A stretch of 64,000 bases of DNA from Escherichia coli (GTDB taxonomy: Bacteria; Pseudomonadota; Gammaproteobacteria; Enterobacterales; Enterobacteriaceae). The DNA is taken from NCBI RefSeq assembly GCF_048403405.1, contig NZ_CP183129.1; one strand, written 5' to 3'. A program made the position numbers and the translations under genes. Below are positions 16,980 to 53,151 of this stretch, piece by piece. The notes beneath the pieces were generated by a model that did no database searches, was not told the origin of the DNA, and saw nothing but the letters and a program-made list of their open reading frames with translations. Position 1 is the first letter of the stretch. Each line of letters starts with the position of its first letter.

Positions 16980-17069
16980 GCGATCAGGAAGACCCTCGCG
17001 GAGAACCTGAAAGCACGACATTGCTCACATTGCTTCCAGTATTACTTAGCCAGCCGGGTGCTGGCTTTT
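16980..17069 (+). ncRNA. ryhB: RyhB small RNA (Fur-repressed, iron-sparing regulator)
   Basis: gcgatcaggaagaccctcgcggagaacctgaaagcacgacattgctcacattgcttccagtattacttagccagccgggtgctggctttt matches recalled RyhB; ends in a GC hairpin plus U-run; lies between yhhY and yhhX. Confidence 0.9.
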
Positions 17070-17190
17070 TTTTGATCTTTCGTTTTCAATTTATCCACGG
17101 GAAGTGCTTGTGTTCGTTATGCGCACTCCAGTAGGAACCACGTCCGCTTTGCGCTAAGGTGTAAATAATCACCTTAAAAAGGACGAAATC

Positions 17191-22412: not shown

Positions 22413-24512
22413 ATGATGGAGAAACACGGAGCTGAATTGCTTTTACAGCGGATGTTAGGAAATACCACCGCTACTTTCAGGGAAGGGCAATGGGAAGCCA
22501 TAGATGCAGTGGTTAATCAGCGGCGAAAACTGCTGGTTGTACAGCGCACCGGCTGGGGGAAAAGTGCCGTGTACTTCATCGCCAGTAAAATCTTCCGAGA
22601 TCGCGGCGCTGGCCCGACAATTATCATCTCTCCTTTGCTTGCCCTGATGCGTAACCAGGTTGCCGCCGCTGAACGGTTAGGTATTACGGCTGAAACGTTG
22701 AATTCTACAAACAGGGAAGAATGGCAGCGCATTAGCGATAAGTTGCTGCAAGGTGAGGTCGATTGCTTGCTGGTTTCCCCGGAACGTTTGGCAAACCAGG
22801 ACTTTATCGAAACGGTTTTGTATCCTATAGCCGATCGTATTGGCTTGCTTGTTGTCGACGAGGCGCACTGCATCTCTGATTGGGGCCACGATTTTCGCCC
22901 GGATTACCGACGTATATTAGATATTTTGCGCCAACTGCCTGCGAATACCCCTGTTCTGGGTACAACCGCGACAGCGAATAACCGTGTTGTTGAGGATATC
23001 CGTCAGCAATTGGGTGACATTGTGATTCAGCGTGGAACGCTGGCTCGCGAAAGTTTGGCGCTTGATGCCTTAGTCTTAGGAGAACAGTCATCCCGTCTGG
23101 CATGGTTAGCAACGGTTATCCCTCAGTTTTCCAAATCGGGAATTGTTTATACCCTGACGACTCGCGATGCTGAACTTGTCGCCGAGTGGTTAAGGAAAAA
23201 TGGTATCAGTGCATTTGCTTACTACAGCGGCGTGACTTGTGAAGGCGCGGAAGATTCTAATACTGCCAGGGAATATCTGGAGCAGGCACTGCTGGCAAAT
23301 AAAATCAAAGTGCTGGTCGCGACGACGGCATTAGGTATGGGGTTTGATAAACCTGATTTAGGTTTCGTCATTCATTATCAGATGCCGGGGTCTATTGTCG
23401 GTTACTACCAACAGGTGGGGCGTGCCGGGCGTGCTATAGATTCCGCAGTTGGCATATTGCTTTGTGGTGGTGAAGACCGCGCTATTCATCAATTCTTCCG
23501 TGAAAGCGCCTTTCCTGCGGAGGCGCAAATTCATGAAATACTCAACGTACTTAGCGAGAATGACGGTCTTACCCTACGAGGCATTGAACAACGGACGAAT
23601 CTTCGTTATGGGCAAATAGAAAAAGCACTGAAATTATTGGTAGCGGAAAATCCATCGCCTGTGGTGTATACCGAGAAATTATGGCGCAGAACTATCGTCA
23701 GTTTTTCTCCTGATCATGAACGAATTAACCATTTGATGAATCAGAGAAAAAGTGAGCTGGCAGACGTTGAAAGCTATATCACGACCAAGGAGTGCAAAAT
23801 GCAATTTCTGCGCCGTGCACTCGATGAGCCAAGTGCCGAACGTTGTGGTAAATGTAGTAGTTGTCTTCAGCATCCGTTATTGTCGCCCGACATTGATAGC
23901 GGCTTACTCCATGCGGCAAATTTATTTATTAAACACGCTGACCTGCCGTTAAATCTCAATAAACAGGTGGCAGCTGGGGCTTTTACGCAATACGGATTTA
24001 AAGGGAACTTGCCTGCGGGTTTACAAGGATCTACGGGGCGAATCCTTTCTCGTTGGGGAGATTCCGGGTGGGGAAAGCAGGTAGCACAGGAGAAAAAAAC
24101 GGGGCGCTTCAGTGATGAGCTGGTAGAAGCATGTGCGGAAATGGTTCGCCAACGCTGGAATCCGCATCCTGAACCAACCTGGGTATGCTGCGTTCCTTCA
24201 TTAAGACACCTCGACCTGGTTCCTGATTTTGCCCGGCGACTGGCGGCGAAACTTGGCTTACCTTTTATTGATGCCATTGAAAAAGTCGTGGACAATCCAC
24301 CGCAGAAAATGCAGCAAAACCGTTTTCACCAGTGTCAAAATCTCGACGGGGCGTTTGTGATTACCCCTCCTTTGATGCCAGGTCCGGCGTTGCTGGTTGA
24401 CGATATCGTGGATTCTGCATGGACGCTGACAGTTCTGACAGCACTGTTACGCCAGGCAGGTTGCCCGACGGTTTATCCTCTTGCCCTTGCTTCTACCTCG
24501 GTAAAAAATTGA
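22413..24512 (+). CDS. RecQ-family DNA helicase with C-terminal PRTase-like extension (699 aa); candidate toxin/effector of a PsyrTA/RqlHI-like module
   Basis: Motif 0 FREGQWEAI, Walker A TGWGKS, DEAH box VVDEAHCISDWGHDFRPDY, LGTTATA, HYQMPGSIVGYYQQVGRAGR; Zn-binding Cys cluster CKMQFLRRALDEPSAERCGKCSSC; C-terminal LLVDDIVDSAWTLTVL resembles a degenerate PRPP-binding loop. RBS GAGGGAGAAG before ATG. Not present at this locus in K-12. Confidence 0.85.
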   Translation: MMEKHGAELLLQRMLGNTTATFREGQWEAIDAVVNQRRKLLVVQRTGWGKSAVYFIASKIFRDRGAGPTIIISPLLALMRNQVAAAERLGITAETLNSTNREEWQRISDKLLQGEVDCLLVSPERLANQDFIETVLYPIADRIGLLVVDEAHCISDWGHDFRPDYRRILDILRQLPANTPVLGTTATANNRVVEDIRQQLGDIVIQRGTLARESLALDALVLGEQSSRLAWLATVIPQFSKSGIVYTLTTRDAELVAEWLRKNGISAFAYYSGVTCEGAEDSNTAREYLEQALLANKIKVLVATTALGMGFDKPDLGFVIHYQMPGSIVGYYQQVGRAGRAIDSAVGILLCGGEDRAIHQFFRESAFPAEAQIHEILNVLSENDGLTLRGIEQRTNLRYGQIEKALKLLVAENPSPVVYTEKLWRRTIVSFSPDHERINHLMNQRKSELADVESYITTKECKMQFLRRALDEPSAERCGKCSSCLQHPLLSPDIDSGLLHAANLFIKHADLPLNLNKQVAAGAFTQYGFKGNLPAGLQGSTGRILSRWGDSGWGKQVAQEKKTGRFSDELVEACAEMVRQRWNPHPEPTWVCCVPSLRHLDLVPDFARRLAAKLGLPFIDAIEKVVDNPPQKMQQNRFHQCQNLDGAFVITPPLMPGPALLVDDIVDSAWTLTVLTALLRQAGCPTVYPLALASTSVKN

Positions 24513-25714
24513 TGAATCTTTCAGCCAATGCACAAGCAACCCTCCTGCTAACCAGCGATTTTTCTCGCGCGGCGGCGAGTGAGTATAAACCTCTTAGTAA
24601 TAGTGAATGGGGGAAGTTTGCATTATGGCTGAAGCACCAACGTATCAGTCCCGCCGATCTTCTGGTGCCGCAACCGCAAGAGAAACTTACAGGCTGGAGC
24701 GATCCGCGTATTTCTCAGGAGCGTATTCTTGGCTTGCTGGCGCGTGGTCATAGTCTGGCGTTGGCGGTAGATAAGTGGCAACGCGCCGGATTATGGATCT
24801 TAACCCGCGGAGATGCCGATTATCCCGTTCGCTTGAAAAACCGATTGCGAACGGATGCTCCTCCCGTTTTATTTGGCTGCGGGAATAAAGCATTATTGCA
24901 AGCGGAAGGTATGGCGATTGTTGGCTCGCGAGATGCTCCGACTGCCGATTTGCGCTATACCCAACAACTGGCAGCGAAACTGGCCCAACAGGGGATTTGC
25001 GTTATCTCTGGTGGTGCGCGAGGTATTGATGAATGTGCAATGGCGTCGGCACTGGAGGCCGGGGGAACTGCCGTTGGCGTATTAGCTGATAGTTTGTTAA
25101 AAACAAGCACGTTAGTGAAATGGCGTAAAGGGCTTATAGCAGGCAACCTGGTGTTGATTTCACCGTTTTACCCAGAGGTACGTTTCACTGTCGGCAATGC
25201 GATGGCGCGGAATAAATATATTTATTGCCTTGCTGAAAGCGCAATGGTTGTACGTGCGGGAATGACCGGTGGAACGATAACCGGAGCGATGGAGGCGTTA
25301 AAACATCAGTGGCTGCCTGTTCTGGTTAAACCAAATCAGGATGTGCAATCAGCCAATTCACGTTTAGTAGAAAATGGGGCGTCATGGAGTGCTGAACAGG
25401 CTGAGAATGTGACGATCAGACTGCCAGATGTTCCTGGGCTGATGTATGACAGAGCACTCCGTAACGCTCAACCAGAATTGTTTTCGCTGCACGAAGATGA
25501 CGCAAATTACGCAGTAATGCCCGCGCATACCCCTGTCGATTTTTATCAACTCTTTGTGGCGGAACTGGCGATCCTTGCAAAGGAATCGATAAGTATTGAA
25601 AGGCTGGCGTCTTGTACTGGTTTAACCATCGAACAAATTAGTGTGTGGCTGAACCGCGCAGAAGAAGAGGGAAGGGTTATCCGATTGGGCGAAGGTCATT
25701 ATCAGTTCAGGTAA
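24512..25714 (+). CDS. DprA/Smf-like (SLOG-superfamily) protein (400 aa); candidate antitoxin/partner
   Basis: ORF 24419..25714; ATG at 24512 (MNLSANAQ...) overlaps the helicase TGA by 1 nt. DprA hallmarks: DADYPVRLKNRLRTDAPPVLFGCGNKALL, Rossmann segment IVGSRDAPT...ISGGARGIDECAM, C-terminal winged-helix-like region. Confidence 0.85.
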   Translation: MNLSANAQATLLLTSDFSRAAASEYKPLSNSEWGKFALWLKHQRISPADLLVPQPQEKLTGWSDPRISQERILGLLARGHSLALAVDKWQRAGLWILTRGDADYPVRLKNRLRTDAPPVLFGCGNKALLQAEGMAIVGSRDAPTADLRYTQQLAAKLAQQGICVISGGARGIDECAMASALEAGGTAVGVLADSLLKTSTLVKWRKGLIAGNLVLISPFYPEVRFTVGNAMARNKYIYCLAESAMVVRAGMTGGTITGAMEALKHQWLPVLVKPNQDVQSANSRLVENGASWSAEQAENVTIRLPDVPGLMYDRALRNAQPELFSLHEDDANYAVMPAHTPVDFYQLFVAELAILAKESISIERLASCTGLTIEQISVWLNRAEEEGRVIRLGEGHYQFR

Positions 25715-33390: not shown

Positions 33391-34823
33391 TGCAGGTTTT
33401 ACATGTATGTTCAGAGATGTTCCCGCTGCTTAAAACCGGCGGTCTGGCTGATGTTATTGGGGCATTACCCGCAGCACAAATCGCAGACGGCGTTGACGCT
33501 CGCGTACTGTTGCCTGCATTTCCCGATATTCGCCGTGGCGTGACCGATGCGCAGGTAGTATCCCGTCGTGATACCTTCGCCGGACATATCACGCTGTTGT
33601 TCGGTCATTACAACGGGGTTGGCATTTACCTGATTGACGCGCCGCATCTCTATGATCGTCCGGGAAGCCCGTATCACGATACCAACTTATTTGCCTATAC
33701 CGACAACGTATTGCGTTTTGCGCTGCTGGGGTGGGTTGGGGCAGAAATGGCTAGCGGGCTTGACCCATTCTGGCGTCCTGATGTGGTGCATGCGCACGAC
33801 TGGCATGCAGGCCTTGCGCCTGCGTATCTGGCGGCGCGCGGGCGTCCGGCGAAGTCGGTGTTTACTGTGCACAACCTGGCCTATCAAGGCATGTTTTATG
33901 CACATCACATGAATGACATCCAATTGCCATGGTCATTCTTTAATATTCATGGGCTGGAATTCAACGGACAAATCTCTTTCCTGAAGGCCGGTCTGTACTA
34001 TGCCGATCACATTACGGCGGTCAGTCCAACCTACGCTCGCGAGATCACCGAACCGCAGTTTGCCTACGGTATGGAAGGTCTGTTGCAACAGCGTCACCGT
34101 GAAGGGCGTCTTTCCGGCGTACTGAACGGCGTGGACGAGAAAATCTGGAGTCCAGAGACGGACTTACTGTTGGCCTCGCGTTACACCCGCGATACGTTGG
34201 AAGATAAAGCGGAAAATAAGCGCCAGTTACAAATCGCAATGGGGCTTAAGGTTGACGATAAAGTGCCGCTTTTTGCAGTGGTGAGCCGTCTGACCAGCCA
34301 GAAAGGTCTCGACCTGGTGCTGGAGGCCTTACCGGGTCTTCTGGAGCAGGGCGGGCAACTGGCGCTACTCGGCGCGGGCGATCCGGTGCTGCAGGAAGGT
34401 TTCCTTGCGGCGGCAGCGGAATACCCCGGCCAGGTGGGCGTTCAGATTGGCTATCACGAAGCATTTTCGCATCGCATTATGGGCGGCGCGGACGTCATTC
34501 TGGTGCCCAGCCGTTTTGAACCGTGCGGCTTAACGCAACTTTATGGATTGAAGTACGGTACGCTGCCGTTAGTGCGGCGCACCGGTGGGCTTGCTGATAC
34601 GGTTTCTGACTGTTCTCTTGAGAACCTTGCAGATGGCGTCGCCAGTGGGTTTGTCTTTGAAGATAGTAATGCCTGGTCGCTGTTACGGGCTATTCGACGT
34701 GCTTTTGTACTGTGGTCCCGTCCTTCACTGTGGCGGTTTGTGCAACGTCAGGCTATGGCAATGGATTTTAGCTGGCAGGTCGCGGCGAAGTCGTACCGTG
34801 AGCTTTACTATCGCTTGAAATAG
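33390..34823 (+). CDS. glgA: Glycogen synthase GlgA
   Basis: 477 aa; [22 protein letters not shown] (KTGGL motif). Confidence 0.94.
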
Positions 34824-37773: not shown

Positions 37774-38478
37774 ATGAAATTCAATCTATCTAATTTATCC
37801 GCAGTTTTACTCGCATCAGGTATGCTGATGTCAACTGCGGTAACCGCTGCGCCAGGCGATGCATCACAATTTGGTGGTGCGGATACAGACTGGAGCACCG
37901 TTGATTATCCAAAACTCACCGATATGGATAGCAACACCGATGCGATGGGCGGAAACATCCGCTTTACTGGTCGTGTGGTTAAAGCGACGTGTAAGGTTGC
38001 TACAGAATCGAAACAGATTGAAGTGGTACTGCCAGTCGTACCTTCTAACGCTTTCACGGGCATTGATACCGAAGCAACGGGTGCCAGTAACCAGACTGAC
38101 TTCAACATTAAATTGACTGATTGTAGCAATACGGACAGTCAAAATATTGAATTTCGTTTTACTGGCGTAGCAGACGGTGCCAACCAGACGCTTGCCAATG
38201 AAGTGGAAGGAGCTGCTGATGCTGATGGTACTGGCGAAGCGGGAGCTACGGGTGTAGGGATTCGTATTTATTCTAAAAACACGACAACTGATGGCCTGAT
38301 TAAGCTGAACACACAAACTCCCCAGGGGAGTAGTTCTTCAGCAGCCTACGTGATTCCTGGCGATGCAGCCACTCATGATTTTACTGCGGCATTTACCGCG
38401 GGCTATGCTCAGAACGGTAGTACCGTTGCACCAGGTCTGGTGAAATCAACGGCAAGTTTCGTCGTGCTGTACGAATAA
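37774..38478 (+). CDS. Fimbrial major subunit (chaperone-usher pilin, 234 aa)
   Basis: Signal peptide MKFNLSNLSAVLLASGMLMSTAVTAA; conserved Cys pair; C-terminal SFVVLYE resembles a pilin donor-strand-acceptor terminus; RBS aaggaaagg. Confidence 0.8.
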   Translation: MKFNLSNLSAVLLASGMLMSTAVTAAPGDASQFGGADTDWSTVDYPKLTDMDSNTDAMGGNIRFTGRVVKATCKVATESKQIEVVLPVVPSNAFTGIDTEATGASNQTDFNIKLTDCSNTDSQNIEFRFTGVADGANQTLANEVEGAADADGTGEAGATGVGIRIYSKNTTTDGLIKLNTQTPQGSSSSAAYVIPGDAATHDFTAAFTAGYAQNGSTVAPGLVKSTASFVVLYE

Positions 38479-38598
38479 TTACAGCAAGATAATTTCAGGT
38501 TACAGTTACTTGTAACCTGAAATTAATATTACATGTTTATTTGTAATAAATAGACATGCATCAGTAATTACAATTAATTTCATCTACAAGGATGCAGT

Positions 38599-39351
38599 AT
38601 GAGATGGATTTCAAAAAATAAATGTTTTTCGAATAGAAACATTAATTCTTTGCTGAAGACCCAATATATCATAAGGGCCGGTGCTCTATTTTTACTATCC
38701 GCCATATCTATCAATGCTATTGCTGCGGGTGGCTTCGGTCTTGGTTCTACGCGTCTGGTTTATCCATCTGACAGTCAGCAAATTACGCTAAGTGTACAGA
38801 ATGGTGGGGCTAACACCAGCTATTTAATCCAGTCATGGATTGATGACAATCAAAGCAGTAAAAAAAGTCAGGATTTTGTGGTTACGCCTCCTTTATTTAT
38901 GTTACCAACGCGAAAAGAAGCCTCATTGAGGATAATGTTTATTGGTAAATCACAGTTACCGACTGATCGCGAAACATTATTCTGGATGAATGTGAAAGCG
39001 ATTCCGCCAACGGATGAGAAGAATACCCAGAAAAACACGTTACAACTGGCGTTACAAAACAGAATTAAATTATTTTACCGTCCGACTAATTTACCCGTTC
39101 AAGCTGGTAAAGCACGGGATATGCTGCGATTTAAATACGAAGGTAAACAGCTAAGAGTCATTAACCCTTCTCCCTATTATCTGACGGTGACTGGAATCAG
39201 GGTGCAAGGGGCAAAATTACCCAATGCGTTTGTTCCACCGAAAAGTGACGTAACAGTGTCTTCACCAGTGATGCTAGCCGGTGAAATTACTTATCAAACT
39301 ATCAATGATTACGGTGCCACAACGGCCAGGCAAAAGGGAACGATGCAATAA
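38599..39351 (+). CDS. Periplasmic fimbrial chaperone (PapD-like)
   Basis: 250 aa; conserved chaperone segments LGSTRLVYPSDSQ and NRIKLFYRP. Confidence 0.85.
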   Translation: MRWISKNKCFSNRNINSLLKTQYIIRAGALFLLSAISINAIAAGGFGLGSTRLVYPSDSQQITLSVQNGGANTSYLIQSWIDDNQSSKKSQDFVVTPPLFMLPTRKEASLRIMFIGKSQLPTDRETLFWMNVKAIPPTDEKNTQKNTLQLALQNRIKLFYRPTNLPVQAGKARDMLRFKYEGKQLRVINPSPYYLTVTGIRVQGAKLPNAFVPPKSDVTVSSPVMLAGEITYQTINDYGATTARQKGTMQ

Positions 39352-39392
39352 ACCTGGAAGATTAAAACGTTAAAGCAACTCAGGTCAGGGAT

Positions 39393-41984
39393 ATGAACCT
39401 AAAGCTCAGAAAACTCGAACACAGGATGGCAAGGCAGAAGCAGATGAGGCGGTGTATGCTGCTTCTACTGACACTTTTGCCTGCGTGTTCAGTGGCGGGT
39501 ATGCGCTTTAACCCTGCATTCCTGTCGGGTGATACAGAAGCTGTTGCTGATTTATCTCGTTTTGAGAAAGGGATGACATATCTACCTGGTAGTTATGAGG
39601 TTGAAATATGGGTCAATGATTCGCCTTTGACATCACGTAAGGTTACTTTCAAAGCTGATGAGCAGAATCAGTTGATCCCCTGTTTTTCGCTCGATGAGTT
39701 AGTTACTTTAGGAATTAACAAAAGTGCATTGCCGGAACAGGCGCAAGCAGAGGGAAATAATTGTCTCGATTTACGTATATGGTTCGCAGAAGTTCAATAC
39801 ACTCCTGAACTGGATGCGCAACGACTCAAACTGACCTTTCCGCAGGCAATATTAAAGCATGAAGCCCGTGGTTATATTCCACCTGAGGAATGGGATAATG
39901 GTATCCCGGCCATTCTTATTAATTATGATTTTTCTGGCAACAGTGATCGTGGAGACTATGCGTCTGATAGTTATTATTTAAATCTCCGTTCAGGTTTAAA
40001 TTTAGGGGCGTGGCGTTTTCGTGATTATTCTACATGGAGTCGTTCAGGTAATTCACCGGGTAAAATTGCACATGTGAGTAGTACGTTACAACGAGTAATT
40101 ATTCCTTTTAAAAGTGAATTAACACTAGGTGATACCTGGTCTTCATCGGATGTTTTCGACAGTGTGAGTATTCGTGGTGCTAAACTTGAATCCGATGAAA
40201 ACATGCTACCCGATAGCCAAAGTGGTTTTGCCCCCACTGTGCGCGGTATTGCTAAAAGCAATGCTCAGGTAACGATCAAACAAAATGGCTATGTTATTTA
40301 TCAGACATATACTCCACCGGGACCCTTTGAAATCAACGATCTGAACCCTACGTCTTCCGCTGGGGATTTGGAAGTTACGATCAAAGAGTCTGATAATTCC
40401 GAAACTATCTATACCATTCCTTACGCCGCTGTTCCCATTCTTCAACGCGAAGGGCATATTAAATATTCGGCAACTGCCGGTAAATATCGTAGCAATAGCT
40501 ATAATCAAAACAGTCCGAATGTCTTTCAAGGAGATTTGATTTGGGGGTTACCCTGGGATATTACCGCCTACGGAGGGATGCAATACTCAAATAATTATCG
40601 GGCAATAGCACTCGGGCTTGGGTTCAACCTTGGTATGTTTGGTGCGACGTCATTTGATTTAACGCAAGCCAATAGCACGCTTGCCGATGGCAGTAAACAT
40701 CAAGGGCAATCGTACCGTTTCCTATATTCAAAATCGTTAGTGCAGACAGGTACGGCTTTTCAGATTATTGGTTATCGCTATTCGACGGAGGGATTTTATT
40801 CGTTGAGTGATACCACATACAAACAAATGTCGGGTACGGTTATCGATCCAGATACCCTTAATGAAAAAGACTATGTTTATAACTGGAATGATTTTTATAA
40901 TTTACGTTATAACAAAAGAGGAAAGTTTCAGGCAAATATATCGCAACCATTGGGCGAATATGGCTCTATGTATTTGGCGGCAAGTCAACAAACTTACTGG
41001 AATACGAATAATAAAGATACCTTGTATCAGGTCGGCTATAATACGAGTGTACATGGGATTTATTTAAATATTGCTTATAATTATAGTAAGTCACCAGGTT
41101 CAGATGCGGACAGAATCTTATCCGTAAATGTCTCATTGCCGATCAGCAATTGGTTATCACCAGCTGTCGATGGGCGTACTGCGACAAATTCTATGACAGC
41201 AACTTATGGTTATAGTCAGGATAATAGCGGTCATGTAAATCAGTATGCCGGAGTATCTGGATCGCTGCTGGAACAACATAATCTCAACTATAATATTCAA
41301 CAAAATTTTGCCAACCAGAATAATGGCGAAAATGGCTCGGTAGGGATAAATTACCGTGGTACATATGGTTCACTAAATTCTGGATACAGCTACGATAATA
41401 ATGGTAACCAGCAATTTAACTATGGTTTAAGTGGTGCCCTGGTTATTCACGAAAATGGTCTCACGTTAAGCCAGCCGTTAGGAGAAACAAATATACTGAT
41501 AAAAGCACCTGGGGCAAACAATGTAAATGTGGAACGCGGAACGGGGGTTAAAACAGACTGGCGTGGCTATGCTGTCGTACCTTATGCCACGGAATATCGG
41601 CGTAATAATATCTCTTTAGACCCTATGTCTATGAGTATGCATACAGAATTAGATGCTACTACTATGGAAGTGATACCCAGCAAAGGTGCTTTAGTTCGTG
41701 CTGAGTTTAATGCACATGTCGGTATTCGAGGTTTATTTAATGTTCATTATCGTAATAAACCAGTTCCATTTGGTGCGACGGTCAGTGTACCCACTGAGGG
41801 GACAACTCAGATTACAGGAATAGTGGGTGACAGTGGACAGGTTTATCTCTCCGGTTTGCCTTTACAAGGCATAATAAATATACAGTGGGGAGAAAGTTCT
41901 TATCAGCAATGTCGGGCAAACTATCAATTACCGGAAAGTGAGTTGGATAATGCCATTAGCTATGCAAATCTGGAGTGCCGCTAA
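39393..41984 (+). CDS. Outer membrane fimbrial usher protein
   Basis: 863 aa; N-terminal FNPAFL usher motif; beta-rich, size typical of ushers. The exact start within the first ~35 codons is uncertain. Confidence 0.88.
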   Translation: MNLKLRKLEHRMARQKQMRRCMLLLLTLLPACSVAGMRFNPAFLSGDTEAVADLSRFEKGMTYLPGSYEVEIWVNDSPLTSRKVTFKADEQNQLIPCFSLDELVTLGINKSALPEQAQAEGNNCLDLRIWFAEVQYTPELDAQRLKLTFPQAILKHEARGYIPPEEWDNGIPAILINYDFSGNSDRGDYASDSYYLNLRSGLNLGAWRFRDYSTWSRSGNSPGKIAHVSSTLQRVIIPFKSELTLGDTWSSSDVFDSVSIRGAKLESDENMLPDSQSGFAPTVRGIAKSNAQVTIKQNGYVIYQTYTPPGPFEINDLNPTSSAGDLEVTIKESDNSETIYTIPYAAVPILQREGHIKYSATAGKYRSNSYNQNSPNVFQGDLIWGLPWDITAYGGMQYSNNYRAIALGLGFNLGMFGATSFDLTQANSTLADGSKHQGQSYRFLYSKSLVQTGTAFQIIGYRYSTEGFYSLSDTTYKQMSGTVIDPDTLNEKDYVYNWNDFYNLRYNKRGKFQANISQPLGEYGSMYLAASQQTYWNTNNKDTLYQVGYNTSVHGIYLNIAYNYSKSPGSDADRILSVNVSLPISNWLSPAVDGRTATNSMTATYGYSQDNSGHVNQYAGVSGSLLEQHNLNYNIQQNFANQNNGENGSVGINYRGTYGSLNSGYSYDNNGNQQFNYGLSGALVIHENGLTLSQPLGETNILIKAPGANNVNVERGTGVKTDWRGYAVVPYATEYRRNNISLDPMSMSMHTELDATTMEVIPSKGALVRAEFNAHVGIRGLFNVHYRNKPVPFGATVSVPTEGTTQITGIVGDSGQVYLSGLPLQGIINIQWGESSYQQCRANYQLPESELDNAISYANLECR

Positions 41985-42547
41985 TGAATATATTACAAAA
42001 ATTTATTCTATTAATGTTTAGATCATTGTTCATGATGGTGATTTCATATAACGCACTGGCTAACGATACTGTAGTGGTCACATTTACAGGACAATTATTA
42101 GCGAAAACGTGTGATATTACAACTGGAAGTAAAGACCAGCCAGTAAACATGGGAACTTATGACGTCAATGATTTTTTGAATGTAGGGGATGTTTCTGGCA
42201 GCCATACATTTACGATCAATCTGGAAGGATGTCCTACAACAACCAGTACTGTTTATAGTTCAGGAGTAAGTGCTAATGTGCAGTTTACCGGGGATGCTGA
42301 TGCTATAAATACCACTTTATTACGCCTTACTTCCAGCGCGGATAGTGCAACTGGAGTGGGCATCGAAATTTTAGACAGTAATGATAAAATTATAGCAATT
42401 AATAGTGAATCAGGATTCAAAGAGTTAATTTTAAATAATAATGGCGATGCCAGTTTAACCTTTAAACTCCGCTATAAGTCAACTCAGCAAAACGTACATG
42501 CGGGACAGGCGAACGCACTATTGTACTTTGATATAGACTATCAGTGA
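41984..42547 (+). CDS. Fimbrial minor subunit
   Basis: ORF 41975..42547 begins at GTG; ATG at 41984 overlaps the usher stop and gives signal peptide MNILQKFILLMFRSLFMMVISYNALA; pilin-like Cys pair. Confidence 0.78.
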   Translation: MNILQKFILLMFRSLFMMVISYNALANDTVVVTFTGQLLAKTCDITTGSKDQPVNMGTYDVNDFLNVGDVSGSHTFTINLEGCPTTTSTVYSSGVSANVQFTGDADAINTTLLRLTSSADSATGVGIEILDSNDKIIAINSESGFKELILNNNGDASLTFKLRYKSTQQNVHAGQANALLYFDIDYQ

Positions 42548-42554
42548 GGTTAAT

Positions 42555-43079
42555 ATGACACGATATTGGAATTTAATTGCCCTATTATTCTCTGTGATAT
42601 CTATGTCATCCATTGCTGATGATACAACGCATGCAGGTGTTGTACGCATCGAAGGAATTATAACAGCAAAGACTTGTATTGTTGCCGATGAGTCTAAAAA
42701 TTTCACAGTTAACATGCCTGATGTTCCCAGTTATACGGTGAGAAATTCAGGGAGTGTTACTGAAAAAATTGGCTTCTCTTTAAAGTTAACCCGTTGTGGC
42801 AGTGATGTCAGTAATGCCAATGTCACGTTTGATGGAATACCAGTTAGTGAAGACGCAGCCCTATATAAACTGGAAGAGGGCTCAGTCGATGGGTTAGCAC
42901 TGGCTATTTTTGATAACAACAGACAAAGTATTAGTAATGGTATAAAGAGTACAAGTTATGCCCTTACACCATTGGTAGATAATACATTGCATTTCTTTGC
43001 TGCTTATAAAGCTATAAAAAATGATGTACAACCAGGAGATGCGAATGCATCAGTTTCCTTTATCGTCACTTATGATTAA
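42555..43079 (+). CDS. Fimbrial minor subunit
   Basis: 174 aa with signal peptide MTRYWNLIALLFSVISMSSIA; pilin-like C-terminus SFIVTYD. Confidence 0.78.
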   Translation: MTRYWNLIALLFSVISMSSIADDTTHAGVVRIEGIITAKTCIVADESKNFTVNMPDVPSYTVRNSGSVTEKIGFSLKLTRCGSDVSNANVTFDGIPVSEDAALYKLEEGSVDGLALAIFDNNRQSISNGIKSTSYALTPLVDNTLHFFAAYKAIKNDVQPGDANASVSFIVTYD

Positions 43080-43824
43080 CGTGCTGATATGCATTTTAAT
43101 ATGTTGCACAAATGCGCAGGCAGGAGTTGTTGTTGGCGGTACTCGTTTTGTTTACCCAGAAAAGCAGTCATCAATTTCGGTCGAGCTTAAAAATACTGCC
43201 AGTAAAGATATGCTGGTTAAAATTTCCGTGACACCTGATGATGGACGTCAGTTAAAAGGGACACTGGAATCCCAGCCTTTACTTCCAGATAAGGCGTTTA
43301 TTGCCACACCACCATTATTGGTACTTAAACAAGATAAAAATACCAAAATAAGAATCAATCGCGTGGGGGGGCAGTTACCTATAGATCGTGAGAGTTTATT
43401 TATACTGAATATTGCAGCGTTACCTGCTCAGGAACAAAACTCACAGCTTAAGAATGAAAATCAACTCCAGGTGGCTGTACGTAATAGGATGAAAATATTT
43501 TACCGCCCAGAGACGTTATCAGGTAATCCACTTGACGCTTATCAACAGTTACGCTGGTCGCGAAACAATGAAGCTGTCACCGTTTTTAACCCTACGCCCT
43601 GGTATGTGACACTCTATAATTTATCTATTGATGGTAAAAGCATAAATGGTGGCATGGTTGCACCATTTAGTCATCGCCAACAGGATTGGTGTCAGCGGCA
43701 AGGATATTGTGAGATTAACTGGCAAACACTAGATCTTTACAATAATGCCTTACCCGTATGGAGCGTAAAATTAAATGTTTTACAAAATAATGCTATTATG
43801 GGTGCAGTAGCGATACATGGATAA
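43045..43824 (+). CDS. Second periplasmic fimbrial chaperone (PapD-like)
   Basis: ORF 43021..43824; ATG at 43045 follows AGGAGA and gives MHQFPLSSLMINVLICILICCTNAQA; motifs GGTRFVYPEKQ and NRMKIFYRP. Confidence 0.82.
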   Translation: MHQFPLSSLMINVLICILICCTNAQAGVVVGGTRFVYPEKQSSISVELKNTASKDMLVKISVTPDDGRQLKGTLESQPLLPDKAFIATPPLLVLKQDKNTKIRINRVGGQLPIDRESLFILNIAALPAQEQNSQLKNENQLQVAVRNRMKIFYRPETLSGNPLDAYQQLRWSRNNEAVTVFNPTPWYVTLYNLSIDGKSINGGMVAPFSHRQQDWCQRQGYCEINWQTLDLYNNALPVWSVKLNVLQNNAIMGAVAIHG

Positions 43825-43834
43825 CTGGAGAAGC

Positions 43835-44968
43835 ATGATGCTTACTTATTTTTGGGGGAATATAAAAGCAATTTGTATATTGTTTGTTCTTTTAGTCAGT
43901 AGCTGCTATAACATAGTATATGCTGAAGATATGGGACGGGATCGCGCCTTTTGTTATCCTGGTGCACCAGGTAATAATACTACTCCTGCGACATTTTCTT
44001 ATAATTTTGGTACGGTAATTGTCTCAGATGTTAATAATAATTCGCCTGGGACAGTATTACCCTCGCAGGACTGGAAAATAGGGCATTATAAGGCTTATTG
44101 TAATTCTCTGGATGATTATGAGGTTTATTTTTCTGGTGTTTCTGGGATTGATCCGTCAGGAGCGTCTGGTGATCATCAGGGGAGCGATATATTTATTCCT
44201 TTGACTCATGAAATATCTGTCTCGACACATGTAAAGCTCTATAATAAAAATGGCACAATGACAGATAAGGCAGTACCTTTTGACAACTATAGCACCAATT
44301 ATCCAGCAGACAGAAGTAAACCATCAAGTTGGGCCTCAGGAACAGAAGGTTATATAAAAATCAGACTTGATAAAAAAATAATATCCGATATCTCAATAAA
44401 TAACGTATTGCTGGTTTCTTTGTATGTCAGCCAGTTTCCAACAGAGCACGGACCAATTCCAGTATTTAATGCTTATATTGGCAACTTAAATATTGAAGTT
44501 CCACAAGGTTGCACAATTAATGAGGGAACTAGTTTTACCGTTAATATGCCGGATGTCTGGGCCAGCGAATTAAGTCGGGCTGGTGCTGGAGTAAAACCAA
44601 CAGGTATTTCTCCAGTGGCAACCACTATTCCGATAAATTGTACGAACAAAGATATTGATGCCGTAATGACGCTGGTTTTCGATGGCAATATTTCATCAAC
44701 GAGAGATGTTAATGGTCGGCAAAGCATTATTCAGGCGGAGGATAACCCCGACGTTGGCATTATGATTATGGATAGCCAACAGGAATCCGTAGACTTAAAT
44801 GCATTGGCTGCGCATGTTGGTGTGCCATTTAAGTTAGTTGAAAACCAGGCTGAGTCAGCTCAGACGGCAGATGTGACTTTTCTGTCTCTCCCTGTAAGTA
44901 CCACAGGGCGACGCCCTGCTGCAGGCCGTTATAATGCCCTGGCTGTTTTGCGGGTGGAATACCAATGA
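43835..44968 (+). CDS. Putative fimbrial tip adhesin (two-domain pilin-like, about 377 aa)
   Basis: ORF 43817..44968; start likely MMLTYFWGNIKAICILFVLLVSS at 43835; size and terminal position fit a lectin-plus-pilin adhesin. Start uncertain by up to 6 codons. Confidence 0.7.
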   Translation: MMLTYFWGNIKAICILFVLLVSSCYNIVYAEDMGRDRAFCYPGAPGNNTTPATFSYNFGTVIVSDVNNNSPGTVLPSQDWKIGHYKAYCNSLDDYEVYFSGVSGIDPSGASGDHQGSDIFIPLTHEISVSTHVKLYNKNGTMTDKAVPFDNYSTNYPADRSKPSSWASGTEGYIKIRLDKKIISDISINNVLLVSLYVSQFPTEHGPIPVFNAYIGNLNIEVPQGCTINEGTSFTVNMPDVWASELSRAGAGVKPTGISPVATTIPINCTNKDIDAVMTLVFDGNISSTRDVNGRQSIIQAEDNPDVGIMIMDSQQESVDLNALAAHVGVPFKLVENQAESAQTADVTFLSLPVSTTGRRPAAGRYNALAVLRVEYQ

Positions 44969-45312: not shown

Positions 45313-45419
45313 TGCCGGATGCGACGTGAACGTCTTATTGGCCTACAAAATCATGCAAATTCAATATATTGCATAAACCACGTAGGCCTGATAAGCGTAG
45401 CGCATCAGGCAGTTTTTTT
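45313..45419. repeat. REP/BIME element with trailing T-run (terminator-like on + strand)
   Basis: tgccggatgcgacgtgaacgtcttattggcctac ... gtaggcctgataagcgtagcgcatcaggc followed by agttttttt. Confidence 0.6.
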
Positions 45420-48387: not shown

Positions 48388-49146
48388 ATGAAACAAACAC
48401 AACGTCACAACGGTATTATCGAACTGGTTAAACAGCAGGGTTATGTCAGTACCGAGGAACTGGTGGAGCACTTCTCCGTCAGCCCGCAGACTATTCGTCG
48501 CGACCTCAACGAGCTGGCAGAGCAAAACCTGATCCTGCGGCATCATGGCGGCGCGGCGCTGCCTTCCAGTTCGGTTAACACGCCGTGGCACGATCGTAAA
48601 GCCACCCAGACCGAAGAAAAAGAGCGCATCGCCCGCAAAGTGGCGGAGCAAATCCCCAACGGCTCGACGCTGTTTATCGATATCGGCACCACCCCGGAAG
48701 CGGTGGCGCACGCGCTGCTTAATCACAGCAATTTGCGCATTGTCACCAACAATCTCAACGTCGCTAACACGTTGATGGTAAAAGAAGATTTTCGCATTAT
48801 TCTCGCCGGTGGCGAATTACGTAGCCGCGATGGTGGGATCATAGGCGAAGCGACGCTCGATTTTATCTCCCAGTTCCGCCTTGATTTCGGCATTCTGGGG
48901 ATTAGTGGCATCGATAGCGACGGCTCGCTGCTGGAGTTCGATTACCACGAAGTTCGCACCAAACGCGCCATTATTGAGAACTCGCGCCACGTTATGCTGG
49001 TTGTCGATCACTCGAAATTTGGCCGTAACGCGATGGTCAATATGGGCAGTATCAGCATGGTAGATGCCGTCTACACCGACGCCCCGCCGCCAGTAAGCGT
49101 CATGCAGGTGCTGACGGACCATCATATTCAACTGGAGCTGTGCTGA
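48388..49146 (+). CDS. glpR: Glycerol-3-phosphate regulon repressor GlpR (DeoR family)
   Basis: 252 aa; N-terminal HTH VSTEELVEHFSVSPQTIRRDLNEL. Confidence 0.92.
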   Translation: MKQTQRHNGIIELVKQQGYVSTEELVEHFSVSPQTIRRDLNELAEQNLILRHHGGAALPSSSVNTPWHDRKATQTEEKERIARKVAEQIPNGSTLFIDIGTTPEAVAHALLNHSNLRIVTNNLNVANTLMVKEDFRIILAGGELRSRDGGIIGEATLDFISQFRLDFGILGISGIDSDGSLLEFDYHEVRTKRAIIENSRHVMLVVDHSKFGRNAMVNMGSISMVDAVYTDAPPPVSVMQVLTDHHIQLELC

Positions 49147-50726
49147 TCCTGCACGGCTTCCCACGTCAGACCAAAACGCGCCAGGTATTTGCGTAGCCGA
49201 TCTGCGTCGTTGACGCTGGCTTTGCCCTGGCGCGAAACATCAAAAAGCTGGCGACCGGCAGCAGAAAGCGATTTTGCCTGGCGGCAGATAGCGATAACGT
49301 GTTCCAGTTGCAGCCGATCAAAGAGGTCGATGTTTTCTGCCTCAGCGCCCAGCAGTTGCGTAAGCGCGGAGGGACGGCTCTCCTGCCAGTTATAGCGCAG
49401 ACGATTTATCTCATCTTCTACGGTTTCCAGAGTAATGCGCCCGCTATCGGCAAAGGTTGCCATCCGCGTGACGCTGGCAGAAAGTTCGCGAAAGTTACCG
49501 CGCCATGTTGCCTGGGGAGATGTCGCAAAAGCCAGCCAGGCGCGCCGTGCTTCGGTGTTAAAACGCACGCTGTCGCCGGTGAGTGAGGCGTGGCGCTCCA
49601 CTTCATAATCCAGGTTAGGTTCAATATCTTCCTGGCGCTGGCGCAGTCCCGGCAGGGTGAAGGTCCAGAGATTGATCCGCGCGTACAGATCTTCGCGAAA
49701 TTTGCCTTCAGCAACCAGCTGGCGCAAATCGCGCACCGTTCCGGCGATCAGCTGAAAATCACTGCTCACCTGGCGATCGCTGCCAAATGGGTAAAAGGTT
49801 TTCTCTTCAATGGCTTTCAGCAACATCGCCTGTTCGTCTGCGCCCAGTTCGCCAATCTCATCAAGAAACAACATGCCACCGTTGGCGCTGCGTAATAATC
49901 CTTCACGAGATTCCCGCGCCCCGGTAAACGCGCCTTTCACATGACCAAACAGCGTCGACATGGCGGTATCGCCGCGCAGGGTGGCGCAGTTCACTTCTAC
50001 AAATGCGCCGCTAAACTGATGCCGCGCCTGTTTCAATTCAAAGATGCGTCGTGCCAGAAATGACTTGCCCGCCCCGGTCGGGCCGTTGAGCAGGATCGGT
50101 GCGCGGGATTTAATCGCCACTTTTTCGATCTGCTCAATCATGCGGTTGAAGTGGGGGTTACGCGTGGCAATGCCGGATTTGAGGAAATCGAGGGTTTGCT
50201 GGCGTTCCTCGGCAAAGCGGCTGGCGATGGCGTTATAACGGCTTAAATCGAGATCGATAATCGTCACTTCACCTGCGCCGCGCGGTTGTTCTTTTTTGCG
50301 CGGTGGTGAAGATTGTATCAACCGGGCGGGTAGATAACGCGCTTCTGCCAGCAGAAACCAGCAAATCTGCGCGACGTGGGTACCGGTGGTGATGTGAATT
50401 AAATAGTCTTCTTTTTCTGGCTGGAACGCGTAACCACGGGCGAAATCATGCAGGCAGGCGTAAACCTCTTCGAAATCCCACGGGTTATGCAGTTCTATCT
50501 CAACGCCCACCACTTCTGTTTCTGGCGAAACGCTGGCGATATCGCGTTTAAGCGTTTCGAATAGCGAGCGCGAGCGGGCGTCGTGCAATAATTCCAGCCG
50601 ATCGATAACTAACGATTCTTGCTGGCATAGACAGAGTGTCGGACGCCATTTTGACCAGCGCTGACTGCCGCGCCCGGCATAATCCAGCACGGTACCGACA
50701 AAGCCAAAAGCCACTGTTTTACGCAT
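49128..50726 (-). CDS. rtcR: Sigma-54-dependent transcriptional activator RtcR
   Basis: 532 aa; AAA+ sigma-54 interaction domain (LLNGPTGAGKS; GAFTGA); 3' end overlaps the glpR 3' end. Confidence 0.9.
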   Translation of the reverse strand: MRKTVAFGFVGTVLDYAGRGSQRWSKWRPTLCLCQQESLVIDRLELLHDARSRSLFETLKRDIASVSPETEVVGVEIELHNPWDFEEVYACLHDFARGYAFQPEKEDYLIHITTGTHVAQICWFLLAEARYLPARLIQSSPPRKKEQPRGAGEVTIIDLDLSRYNAIASRFAEERQQTLDFLKSGIATRNPHFNRMIEQIEKVAIKSRAPILLNGPTGAGKSFLARRIFELKQARHQFSGAFVEVNCATLRGDTAMSTLFGHVKGAFTGARESREGLLRSANGGMLFLDEIGELGADEQAMLLKAIEEKTFYPFGSDRQVSSDFQLIAGTVRDLRQLVAEGKFREDLYARINLWTFTLPGLRQRQEDIEPNLDYEVERHASLTGDSVRFNTEARRAWLAFATSPQATWRGNFRELSASVTRMATFADSGRITLETVEDEINRLRYNWQESRPSALTQLLGAEAENIDLFDRLQLEHVIAICRQAKSLSAAGRQLFDVSRQGKASVNDADRLRKYLARFGLTWEAVQDQHSSS

Positions 50727-50852
50727 CTTAGATATCCTTATAAAAGACGATATTTCATTATCGGTAAATCGGCTTTGCGGGAAATCTCCGTTTACGGACG
50801 TAAAGATTTAATCTTTTTAGAAACAATAAATTAATCTGCTTATTTAATTTTC

Positions 50853-50868
50853 TGGCACGACGGTTGCA
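50853..50868 (+). promoter_or_regulatory. Sigma-54 (-24/-12) promoter of rtcBA
   Basis: TGGCAC-gacgg-TTGCA matches the sigma-54 consensus TGGCAC-N5-TTGCW; about 37 bp upstream of the rtcB start, divergent from rtcR. Confidence 0.8.
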
Positions 50869-50904
50869 ATTATCAGGACATACCAACGAAAAGAGAAAAA
50901 CAAA

Positions 50905-52131
50905 ATGAATTACGAATTACTGACCACTGAAAATGCCCCGGTAAAAATGTGGACCAAAGGCGTGCCGGTAGAAGCCGATGCGCGTCAGCAACTTATTAAT
51001 ACGGCGAAGATGCCGTTTATTTTCAAACATATTGCGGTAATGCCTGATGTACACCTGGGTAAAGGTTCCACCATTGGTAGCGTGATCCCGACCAAAGGGG
51101 CGATTATTCCGGCGGCGGTGGGCGTGGATATCGGTTGTGGAATGAACGCGCTGCGCACCGCGTTAACGGCGGCTGACCTGCCTGAAAACCTGGCAGAACT
51201 GCGTCAGGCGATTGAAACTGCCGTGCCGCACGGGCGTACTACCGGACGTTGTAAACGTGATAAAGGCGCATGGGAAAATCCGCCTGTTAACGTCGATGCG
51301 AAATGGGCTGAGCTGGAAGCCGGTTATCAGTGGTTAACGCAAAAATATCCCCGTTTCCTTAACACTAACAACTATAAACACCTGGGAACGCTGGGAACGG
51401 GTAACCACTTTATTGAAATCTGCCTTGATGAATCGGACCAGGTGTGGATTATGCTGCACTCCGGTTCACGCGGAATCGGTAATGCCATCGGAACTTACTT
51501 TATCGATCTGGCGCAAAAAGAGATGCAGGAAACGCTTGAAACATTGCCGTCGCGTGATCTGGCGTACTTTATGGAAGGTACGGAATACTTTGATGATTAC
51601 CTGAAAGCCGTGGCCTGGGCGCAGCTTTTTGCCAGCCTTAACCGCGATGCGATGATGGAAAACGTGGTAACGGCGTTGCAGAGCATTACGCAGAAAACGG
51701 TCAGACAGCCACAAACGCTGGCGATGGAAGAGATCAACTGTCACCACAACTATGTGCAAAAAGAACAGCACTTTGGTGAAGAGATCTACGTGACGCGTAA
51801 AGGCGCGGTGTCTGCGCGTGCTGGTCAATATGGAATTATTCCCGGTTCGATGGGGGCGAAGAGCTTTATCGTCCGTGGGCTGGGAAATGAAGAGTCGTTC
51901 TGTTCGTGCAGCCACGGTGCCGGGCGGGTTATGAGCCGTACCAAAGCGAAAAAACTGTTCAGCGTGGAAGATCAAATTCGTGCCACCGCGCATGTGGAAT
52001 GCCGTAAAGATGCCGAAGTGATCGACGAAATCCCGATGGCGTATAAAGATATTGATGCGGTGATGGCGGCACAAAGCGATCTGGTGGAAGTTATCTACAC
52101 CCTGCGTCAGGTGGTGTGCGTAAAAGGATAA
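50905..52131 (+). CDS. rtcB: RNA-splicing ligase RtcB
   Basis: 408 aa; MNYELLTTENAPVKMWTKGVPVEADARQQL; His-rich metal site NCHHNY. Confidence 0.93.
   Translation: MNYELLTTENAPVKMWTKGVPVEADARQQLINTAKMPFIFKHIAVMPDVHLGKGSTIGSVIPTKGAIIPAAVGVDIGCGMNALRTALTAADLPENLAELRQAIETAVPHGRTTGRCKRDKGAWENPPVNVDAKWAELEAGYQWLTQKYPRFLNTNNYKHLGTLGTGNHFIEICLDESDQVWIMLHSGSRGIGNAIGTYFIDLAQKEMQETLETLPSRDLAYFMEGTEYFDDYLKAVAWAQLFASLNRDAMMENVVTALQSITQKTVRQPQTLAMEEINCHHNYVQKEQHFGEEIYVTRKGAVSARAGQYGIIPGSMGAKSFIVRGLGNEESFCSCSHGAGRVMSRTKAKKLFSVEDQIRATAHVECRKDAEVIDEIPMAYKDIDAVMAAQSDLVEVIYTLRQVVCVKG

Positions 52132-53151
<1,020 letters not shown>

Follow-up and report, generated by a model that had tools for sequence, protein, structure and literature searches.

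The closest described system is the rtcBA RNA-repair operon of Escherichia coli K-12, whose promoter PrtcBA depends on the activator RtcR. In the sigma-54 ChIP-seq study of strain MG1655 the bound site OS35 was attributed to rtcB, 28 nt away, and was flagged as a previously confirmed promoter (Bonocora et al. 2015, PMC4591121). Two later papers document that PrtcBA activity depends on RtcR and sigma-54: reporters built on the K-12 fragment need RtcR for expression, and RtcR without its CARF domain is constitutively active (PMC5175333, PMC9650030). The second paper also mentions an enhancer and an IHF site for the rtc promoter, and coordinates for these do not appear in the text and supplements consulted (PMC9650030).

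An orthologous RtcR-dependent sigma-54 promoter, rsrp, is described in Salmonella Typhimurium. Its sequence, TGGCACGCTGGTTGCAAT, differs from the E. coli element in two spacer bases, lies upstream of rsr and divergent from rtcR, and binds sigma-54 (PMC3844500). Transcripts of the operon were raised 71-fold in a microarray for sigma-54-dependent transcripts in which a constitutive enhancer-binding protein was expressed, and the promoter was chosen by Samuels et al. because it was without a predicted sigma-70 promoter (PMC3844500). For rtcR of Salmonella itself, a divergent promoter of the sigma-70 type is described (PMC9879122). The Salmonella operon consists of rsr, the Y-RNA genes yrlBA and then rtcBA (rsr-yrlBA-rtcBA), whereas E. 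coli is without rsr-yrlBA, so that rtcB comes directly after the leader.

The pspF-pspA pair is likewise built on a divergent activator gene, an enhancer near or overlapping the promoter of the activator, an IHF-assisted loop and feedback of an operon product on the activator. The parallel between Rtc and Psp feedback is drawn in PMC9650030. The two activators differ in their control, as PspF has no N-terminal regulatory domain and is under the control of PspA, whereas RtcR is controlled via a CARF-like domain.

The rtcR-rtcBA locus and its sigma-54 element

The window, that is the whole stretch of 64,000 nucleotides that was analysed, is from E. coli but not from K-12. Over the 801 bp that surround the site, identity is 95.3% with K-12 and 100% with strain TUM14771. 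Colinearity with TUM14771 extends over the whole window, at 99.987% identity, and the RefSeq annotation of that strain therefore applies directly to it. The genes and the promoter features of the locus are as follows.

49128-50726, minus strand: rtcR, sigma-54 enhancer-binding activator of 532 aa (profile matches and RefSeq annotation of the near-identical strain)
50905-52131, plus strand: rtcB, RNA ligase, first gene of the operon (open reading frame and annotation)
52135-53151, plus strand: rtcA, RNA 3'-terminal phosphate cyclase (start as in RefSeq; the in-frame ATG at 52132 could also serve)
50853-50868, plus strand: sigma-54 -24/-12 element TGGCACGACGGTTGCA (exact motif, identity with K-12 OS35, conservation)
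50852-50870, plus strand: extended conserved form CTGGCACGACGGTTGCAAT (alignment)
50879, plus strand: predicted transcription start, +1 = C with A at -1 (geometry)
50879-50904, plus strand: predicted rtcB leader of 26 nt (2-bp deletion relative to K-12 between 50880 and 50881)

The gene layout was found to be that of an rtcR-rtcBA RNA repair locus, with RtcR divergent from an operon of the RtcB ligase and the RtcA cyclase. Convergent malT follows rtcA, and glpR-glpG-glpE lies beyond rtcR. The profile matches of RtcA and RtcR (NCBIfam, Pfam) exceeded the cut-offs. RtcR scored 852 bits on NCBIfam NF038308 (cut-off 650) and carries the Pfam domains RtcR/CARF-like at residues 2-185 and Sigma54_activat (PF00158, AAA+ sigma-54 interaction) at 187-354, with a Walker A motif starting at residue 215 and GAFTGA at 265-270. 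RtcB matched RtcB-family NCBIfam models only below the curated cut-offs, the best E-value being 4.6e-136; RefSeq gives it the name RtcB. A terminator scan after rtcA returned one weak candidate, inside malT, which was set aside. The rtcR/rtcB locus is present with the same annotation in 4,833 of 5,426 complete E. coli genomes. In E. coli NRZ100600 an IS1 stands in place of the promoter, rtcBA, malT and the 5' end of rtcR, so that malP is directly next; this loss shows that some isolates can do without the Rtc system altogether.

Other loci of the window were also recorded. The mapped TUM14771 annotation places a seven-gene chaperone-usher fimbrial operon at about 37774-44968, between glpD and glgP, which is presumably not part of the K-12 map of the region. 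Overlapping genes for a RecQ-family helicase and a DprA-like protein, mapped in the same way, lie at about 22416-25714 between yhgN and gntU, and this segment looks like a small strain-specific island. Two small RNAs reached the Rfam gathering score: RyhB (17009-17073, plus strand, 83 bits), between yhhX and yhhY, and ES036/CssrF (45347-45389, plus strand, 43.6 bits), just past the 3' end of glpD and on the opposite strand.

The original prediction had proposed a -24/-12 consensus with correct spacing at 50853-50868, upstream of rtcB and divergent from rtcR, and both points were borne out. The element carries TGGCAC at 50853-50858 and TTGCA at 50864-50868; the GG at 50854-50855 and the GC at 50866-50867 have the canonical -24/-12 spacing. 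The range 50727-50904 is the exact 178-bp gap between rtcR on the minus strand and rtcBA on the plus strand, as the open reading frames and profile matches confirm. TGGCACGACGGTTGCA lies on the strand of rtcB (plus) and ends 36 nt before its ATG, and the plus strand through the promoter region reads ...TTTTCTGGCACGACGGTTGCAATTATCAGGACATACC... The window was scanned for the motif in the form TGGCAC-N5-TTGCW, i.e. TGGCACNNNNNTTGCW, and TGGCACGACGGTTGCA was the sole exact match on both strands of the 64 kb (0.08 expected). With one mismatch allowed, five matches were found against 2.96 expected, which is not above chance; the four matches with one mismatch (at 1666, 10241, 15583 and 63756) were not taken as promoters since their count is close to that of chance. 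The weight therefore rests on the exact match and its context.

A further sigma-54-related sequence is present in the window: AAGGCATGTTTTATGCA at 33886-33902 (plus strand), inside glgA, is identical to the intragenic sigma-54 ChIP-seq site IS43. The K-12 ChIP score of IS43 is 49 and that of the rtcB promoter is 17 (Bonocora et al. 2015, PMC4591121).

The conservation of the element was analysed by a DNA-pattern scan of species-representative genomes with CTGGCACGNNGGTTGCAAT, followed by tblastn with the RtcR and RtcB of the window. The 19-mer of the extended form adjoins a divergent RtcR in E. albertii, E. whittamii and two further Escherichia species, and also in Klebsiella spallanzanii and Intestinirhabdus alba, where RtcR is 84% identical. 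It adjoins a divergent RtcR orthologue in two Chitinimonas species, and the exact 19-mer CTGGCACGGCGGTTGCAAT stands beside a divergent RtcR (54-55% identical) in three Riflebacteria metagenome-assembled genomes. The core promoter is thus conserved between these genomes and Proteobacteria, but the upstream repeat differs, being of the A/T-rich TATATAAAATTATATA type in Riflebacteria, and for this reason they were left out of the enterobacterial enhancer definition. Across Escherichia, Klebsiella and Intestinirhabdus the -24/-12 element is invariant except for one spacer base. Alignment of eight enterobacterial control regions gave only two blocks common to the three genera, namely the -24/-12 element with its immediate flanks and an inverted repeat farther upstream.

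In comparison with K-12 PrtcBA, the 19-mer, the gene order, the divergent rtcR and the candidate enhancer repeat are all identical in the window. The 17-mer CTGGCACGACGGTTGCA is identical to OS35 of K-12 MG1655 (PMC4591121). The established RtcR-dependent sigma-54 control of the RNA repair operon, which the original prediction had invoked, is in accordance with the K-12 ChIP-seq and reporter papers; that interpretation was correct and was already known. The element is almost certainly the sigma-54 (RpoN) promoter of the rtcBA RNA-repair operon. As such it is established knowledge and a textbook regulatory call, and no discovery.

The primary start-site paper for PrtcBA is that of Genschik et al. 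1998 (PMID 9738023), which the studies named above cite. In this strain rtcB transcription is predicted to start at about C50879, which lies 12 nt downstream of the C (50867) of the -12 GC, with A50878 and C50879 at -1/+1. This prediction agrees with the use of an ApC dinucleotide to prime native PrtcBA at -1/+1, as given in PMC9650030, and with the distance of 28 nt to rtcB tabulated for K-12. The K-12 leader is the same as that of the window except for the deletion of 2 bp at +2/+3 in the window, owing to which 28 nt in K-12 become 26 nt here. Part of the leader, AACGrAAAnGrG, is kept even where the first downstream gene is not rtcB, as in Klebsiella and Intestinirhabdus. In K. spallanzanii and I. 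alba about 1.9-2.1 kb separate the promoter from rtcB, and this gap is assumed to hold the Salmonella-type rsr-yrlBA-rtcBA arrangement. The sharing of the leader motif with E. coli would fit a history in which Escherichia lost rsr-yrlBA and kept the leader.

Candidate sites between rtcR and the promoter

The remaining features of the intergenic region, three of which have no assigned strand, are listed below.

50746-50763: candidate RtcR enhancer (UAS), inverted repeat GACGATA-N6-TATCG (cross-genus conservation)
50782-50799: block AAATCTCCGTTTACGGAC (conservation in Escherichia)
50821-50833, plus strand: IHF-like site AAACAATAAATTA, centred near -52 (one mismatch to WATCAANNNNTTR)
50827/50828: point at which 8 bp present in K-12 and other Escherichia are missing (alignment)

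The inverted repeat at 50746-50763 is the best candidate for the RtcR enhancer. It is centred at a distance of 29.5 bp from the start codon of rtcR, and 98.5 bp separate this centre from the first G of the -24 GG downstream. The repeat lies about 123 bp upstream of +1; the UAS of a sigma-54 promoter is expected about 80-150 bp away. In K. spallanzanii and I. alba it takes the form AAAGACGATA-N6-TATCGTCTTT with perfect 10-bp arms, in Escherichia the form AAAGACGATA-N6-TATCGgtaaa with the core CGATA-N6-TATCG, and in Chitinimonas CGATA-N6-TATC is found in the same place beside rtcR. Between genera the 6-nt spacer varies and the arms stay constant, as would be expected of a dimeric helix-turn-helix site. 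GACGATA-N6-TATCG occurs once in the window. A repeat finder run on the intergenic region returned short A/T-rich repeats only, missing CGATA-N6-TATCG since in E. coli it has arms of 5 bp; the core was found solely by the cross-genus alignment. Since the repeat is so near the rtcR ATG, bound RtcR would sit on the rtcR leader or promoter, and this suggests that rtcR may be autoregulated through it.

The block AAATCTCCGTTTACGGAC is kept in six of the seven aligned Escherichia, with one substitution in K-12, and is retained in E. whittamii, where the flanks have diverged; in the alignment it is absent from Klebsiella and Intestinirhabdus. It contains TCCGT/ACGGA inverted arms and may be part of the rtcR promoter or a further binding site. 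Minus-strand candidates for the rtcR promoter were picked out by eye (TTTACC-17-TTTTAT, and GATAAT with a poor -35) and were too weak to call. The search for the IHF consensus returned a single match with one mismatch, which is not significant alone (0.53 expected; 40% of shuffles had at least one), and an IHF site in the spacer is accordingly treated as putative.

The rare 8-bp deletion and the spacing of the candidate enhancer

Besides the 2-bp deletion in the leader, a few SNPs separate the window from K-12 in this region. The one unusual feature is that the A/T-rich spacer of the window is 8 bp shorter, owing to a deletion after 50827, than in K-12 and all other Escherichia compared. The bases lost make up one unit of an imperfect tandem repeat, GAATTAAA/AAATTAAG, and the distance between UAS and promoter is shortened by their loss. 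In seven taxa of three genera the centre of the inverted repeat and the -24 GG are 104.5-106.5 bp apart, compared with 98.5 bp in the window. The DNA between repeat and promoter is barely conserved in the seven taxa despite this steady distance. Of at least 4,095 complete E. coli genomes, 4,080 have the long form and about 15 the short allele; an 81-nt probe matched 10 of the latter at 99% identity or more and 5 at 95-99%.

Dependence on the face of the helix is established for IHF-assisted sigma-54 promoters such as nifH. It is possible, albeit unlikely, that the promoter is genuine but has been attenuated or re-tuned in this lineage by the deletion, which falls between the enhancer/IHF region and the -24 element. 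Eight base pairs are about three quarters of a helical turn and would rotate the bound activator relative to the polymerase; the steady spacing elsewhere and the rarity of the short allele point in the same direction. However, the enhancer assignment behind the spacing argument is itself one that we infer, and the same kind of repeat in Chitinimonas lies 129.5 bp from the GG (counted by hand from the sequences), so that the spacing is not universally fixed. The genes rtcR, rtcB and rtcA are intact in the short-allele strains, which argues against decay of the system. A measurable effect of the deletion on inducibility is consequently regarded as doubtful. The broader proposal, that the deletion is a natural cis-regulatory variant altering the strength or threshold of RNA-repair induction and that GACGATA-N6-TATCG is an unpublished RtcR site autoregulating rtcR, is speculative and held to be improbable.

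Proposed mechanism and implications

The preferred reading, an RtcR-dependent sigma-54 promoter of rtcBA, would operate as follows. The sigma-54 holoenzyme would bind the GG(-24)/GC(-12) at 50854-50867 as a closed complex, and the CARF-like N-terminal domain of the divergently encoded RtcR would keep this activator inactive. In response to a signal, for example damaged tRNA ends or RtcAB, RtcR would oligomerise on the upstream enhancer, placed here at the candidate inverted repeat 50746-50763. By DNA looping, probably aided by an IHF bend in the A/T-rich spacer, the GAFTGA loop of RtcR would contact sigma-54, and ATP hydrolysis would open the promoter. Transcription would then begin at about C50879. 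What the present analysis contributes to this scheme is the motif and the finding that it occurs once in the window, together with the gene context, the domains of RtcR and the cross-genus conservation. The literature contributes sigma-54 binding and RtcR dependence in K-12, and the start site, the identity of the enhancer and the IHF site are what we infer.

Transcription of rtcBA mainly from an RtcR-independent promoter of the sigma-70 type, with the sigma-54 site in a minor role, is very improbable. It would draw on PMC9650030, where some Rtc-inducing conditions are said to act without RtcR, possibly via other promoters; RtcR-independent induction in Salmonella is there called 'likely due to ... 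the use of alternative promoters', and native PrtcBA is described as very weak in vitro despite its consensus look. Against it, a sigma-70 scan of both strands at 50600-51000 gave no hexamer pair for an alternative rtcB promoter or for rtcR. The activity of the K-12 fragment in reporters depends on RtcR (PMC5175333, PMC9650030), and the lack of a predicted sigma-70 promoter was the very ground on which Samuels et al. selected the Salmonella orthologue (PMC3844500). That TGGCACGACGGTTGCA is a chance match without function, for which an exact TGGCACNNNNNTTGCW match in 8 of 100 dinucleotide-preserving shuffles of the window might speak, is effectively refuted by the published ChIP-seq and reporter data, as sigma-54 binds the identical sequence in living K-12 cells (PMC4591121), its position and orientation beside a dedicated sigma-54 activator fit, and it is conserved across genera where the flanking DNA is not.

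With the sigma-54 promoter of rtcBA so identified, the result indicates that a first-stage reader is able to spot a real promoter of this class in raw sequence. For workers on the Rtc system the cross-genus comparison makes a small addition, a concrete and testable candidate for the RtcR binding site. The natural spacing variant could help to examine how far activation by RtcR depends on helical phase, and if looping is phase-dependent here, the inducibility of RNA repair could differ in this lineage of E. coli.
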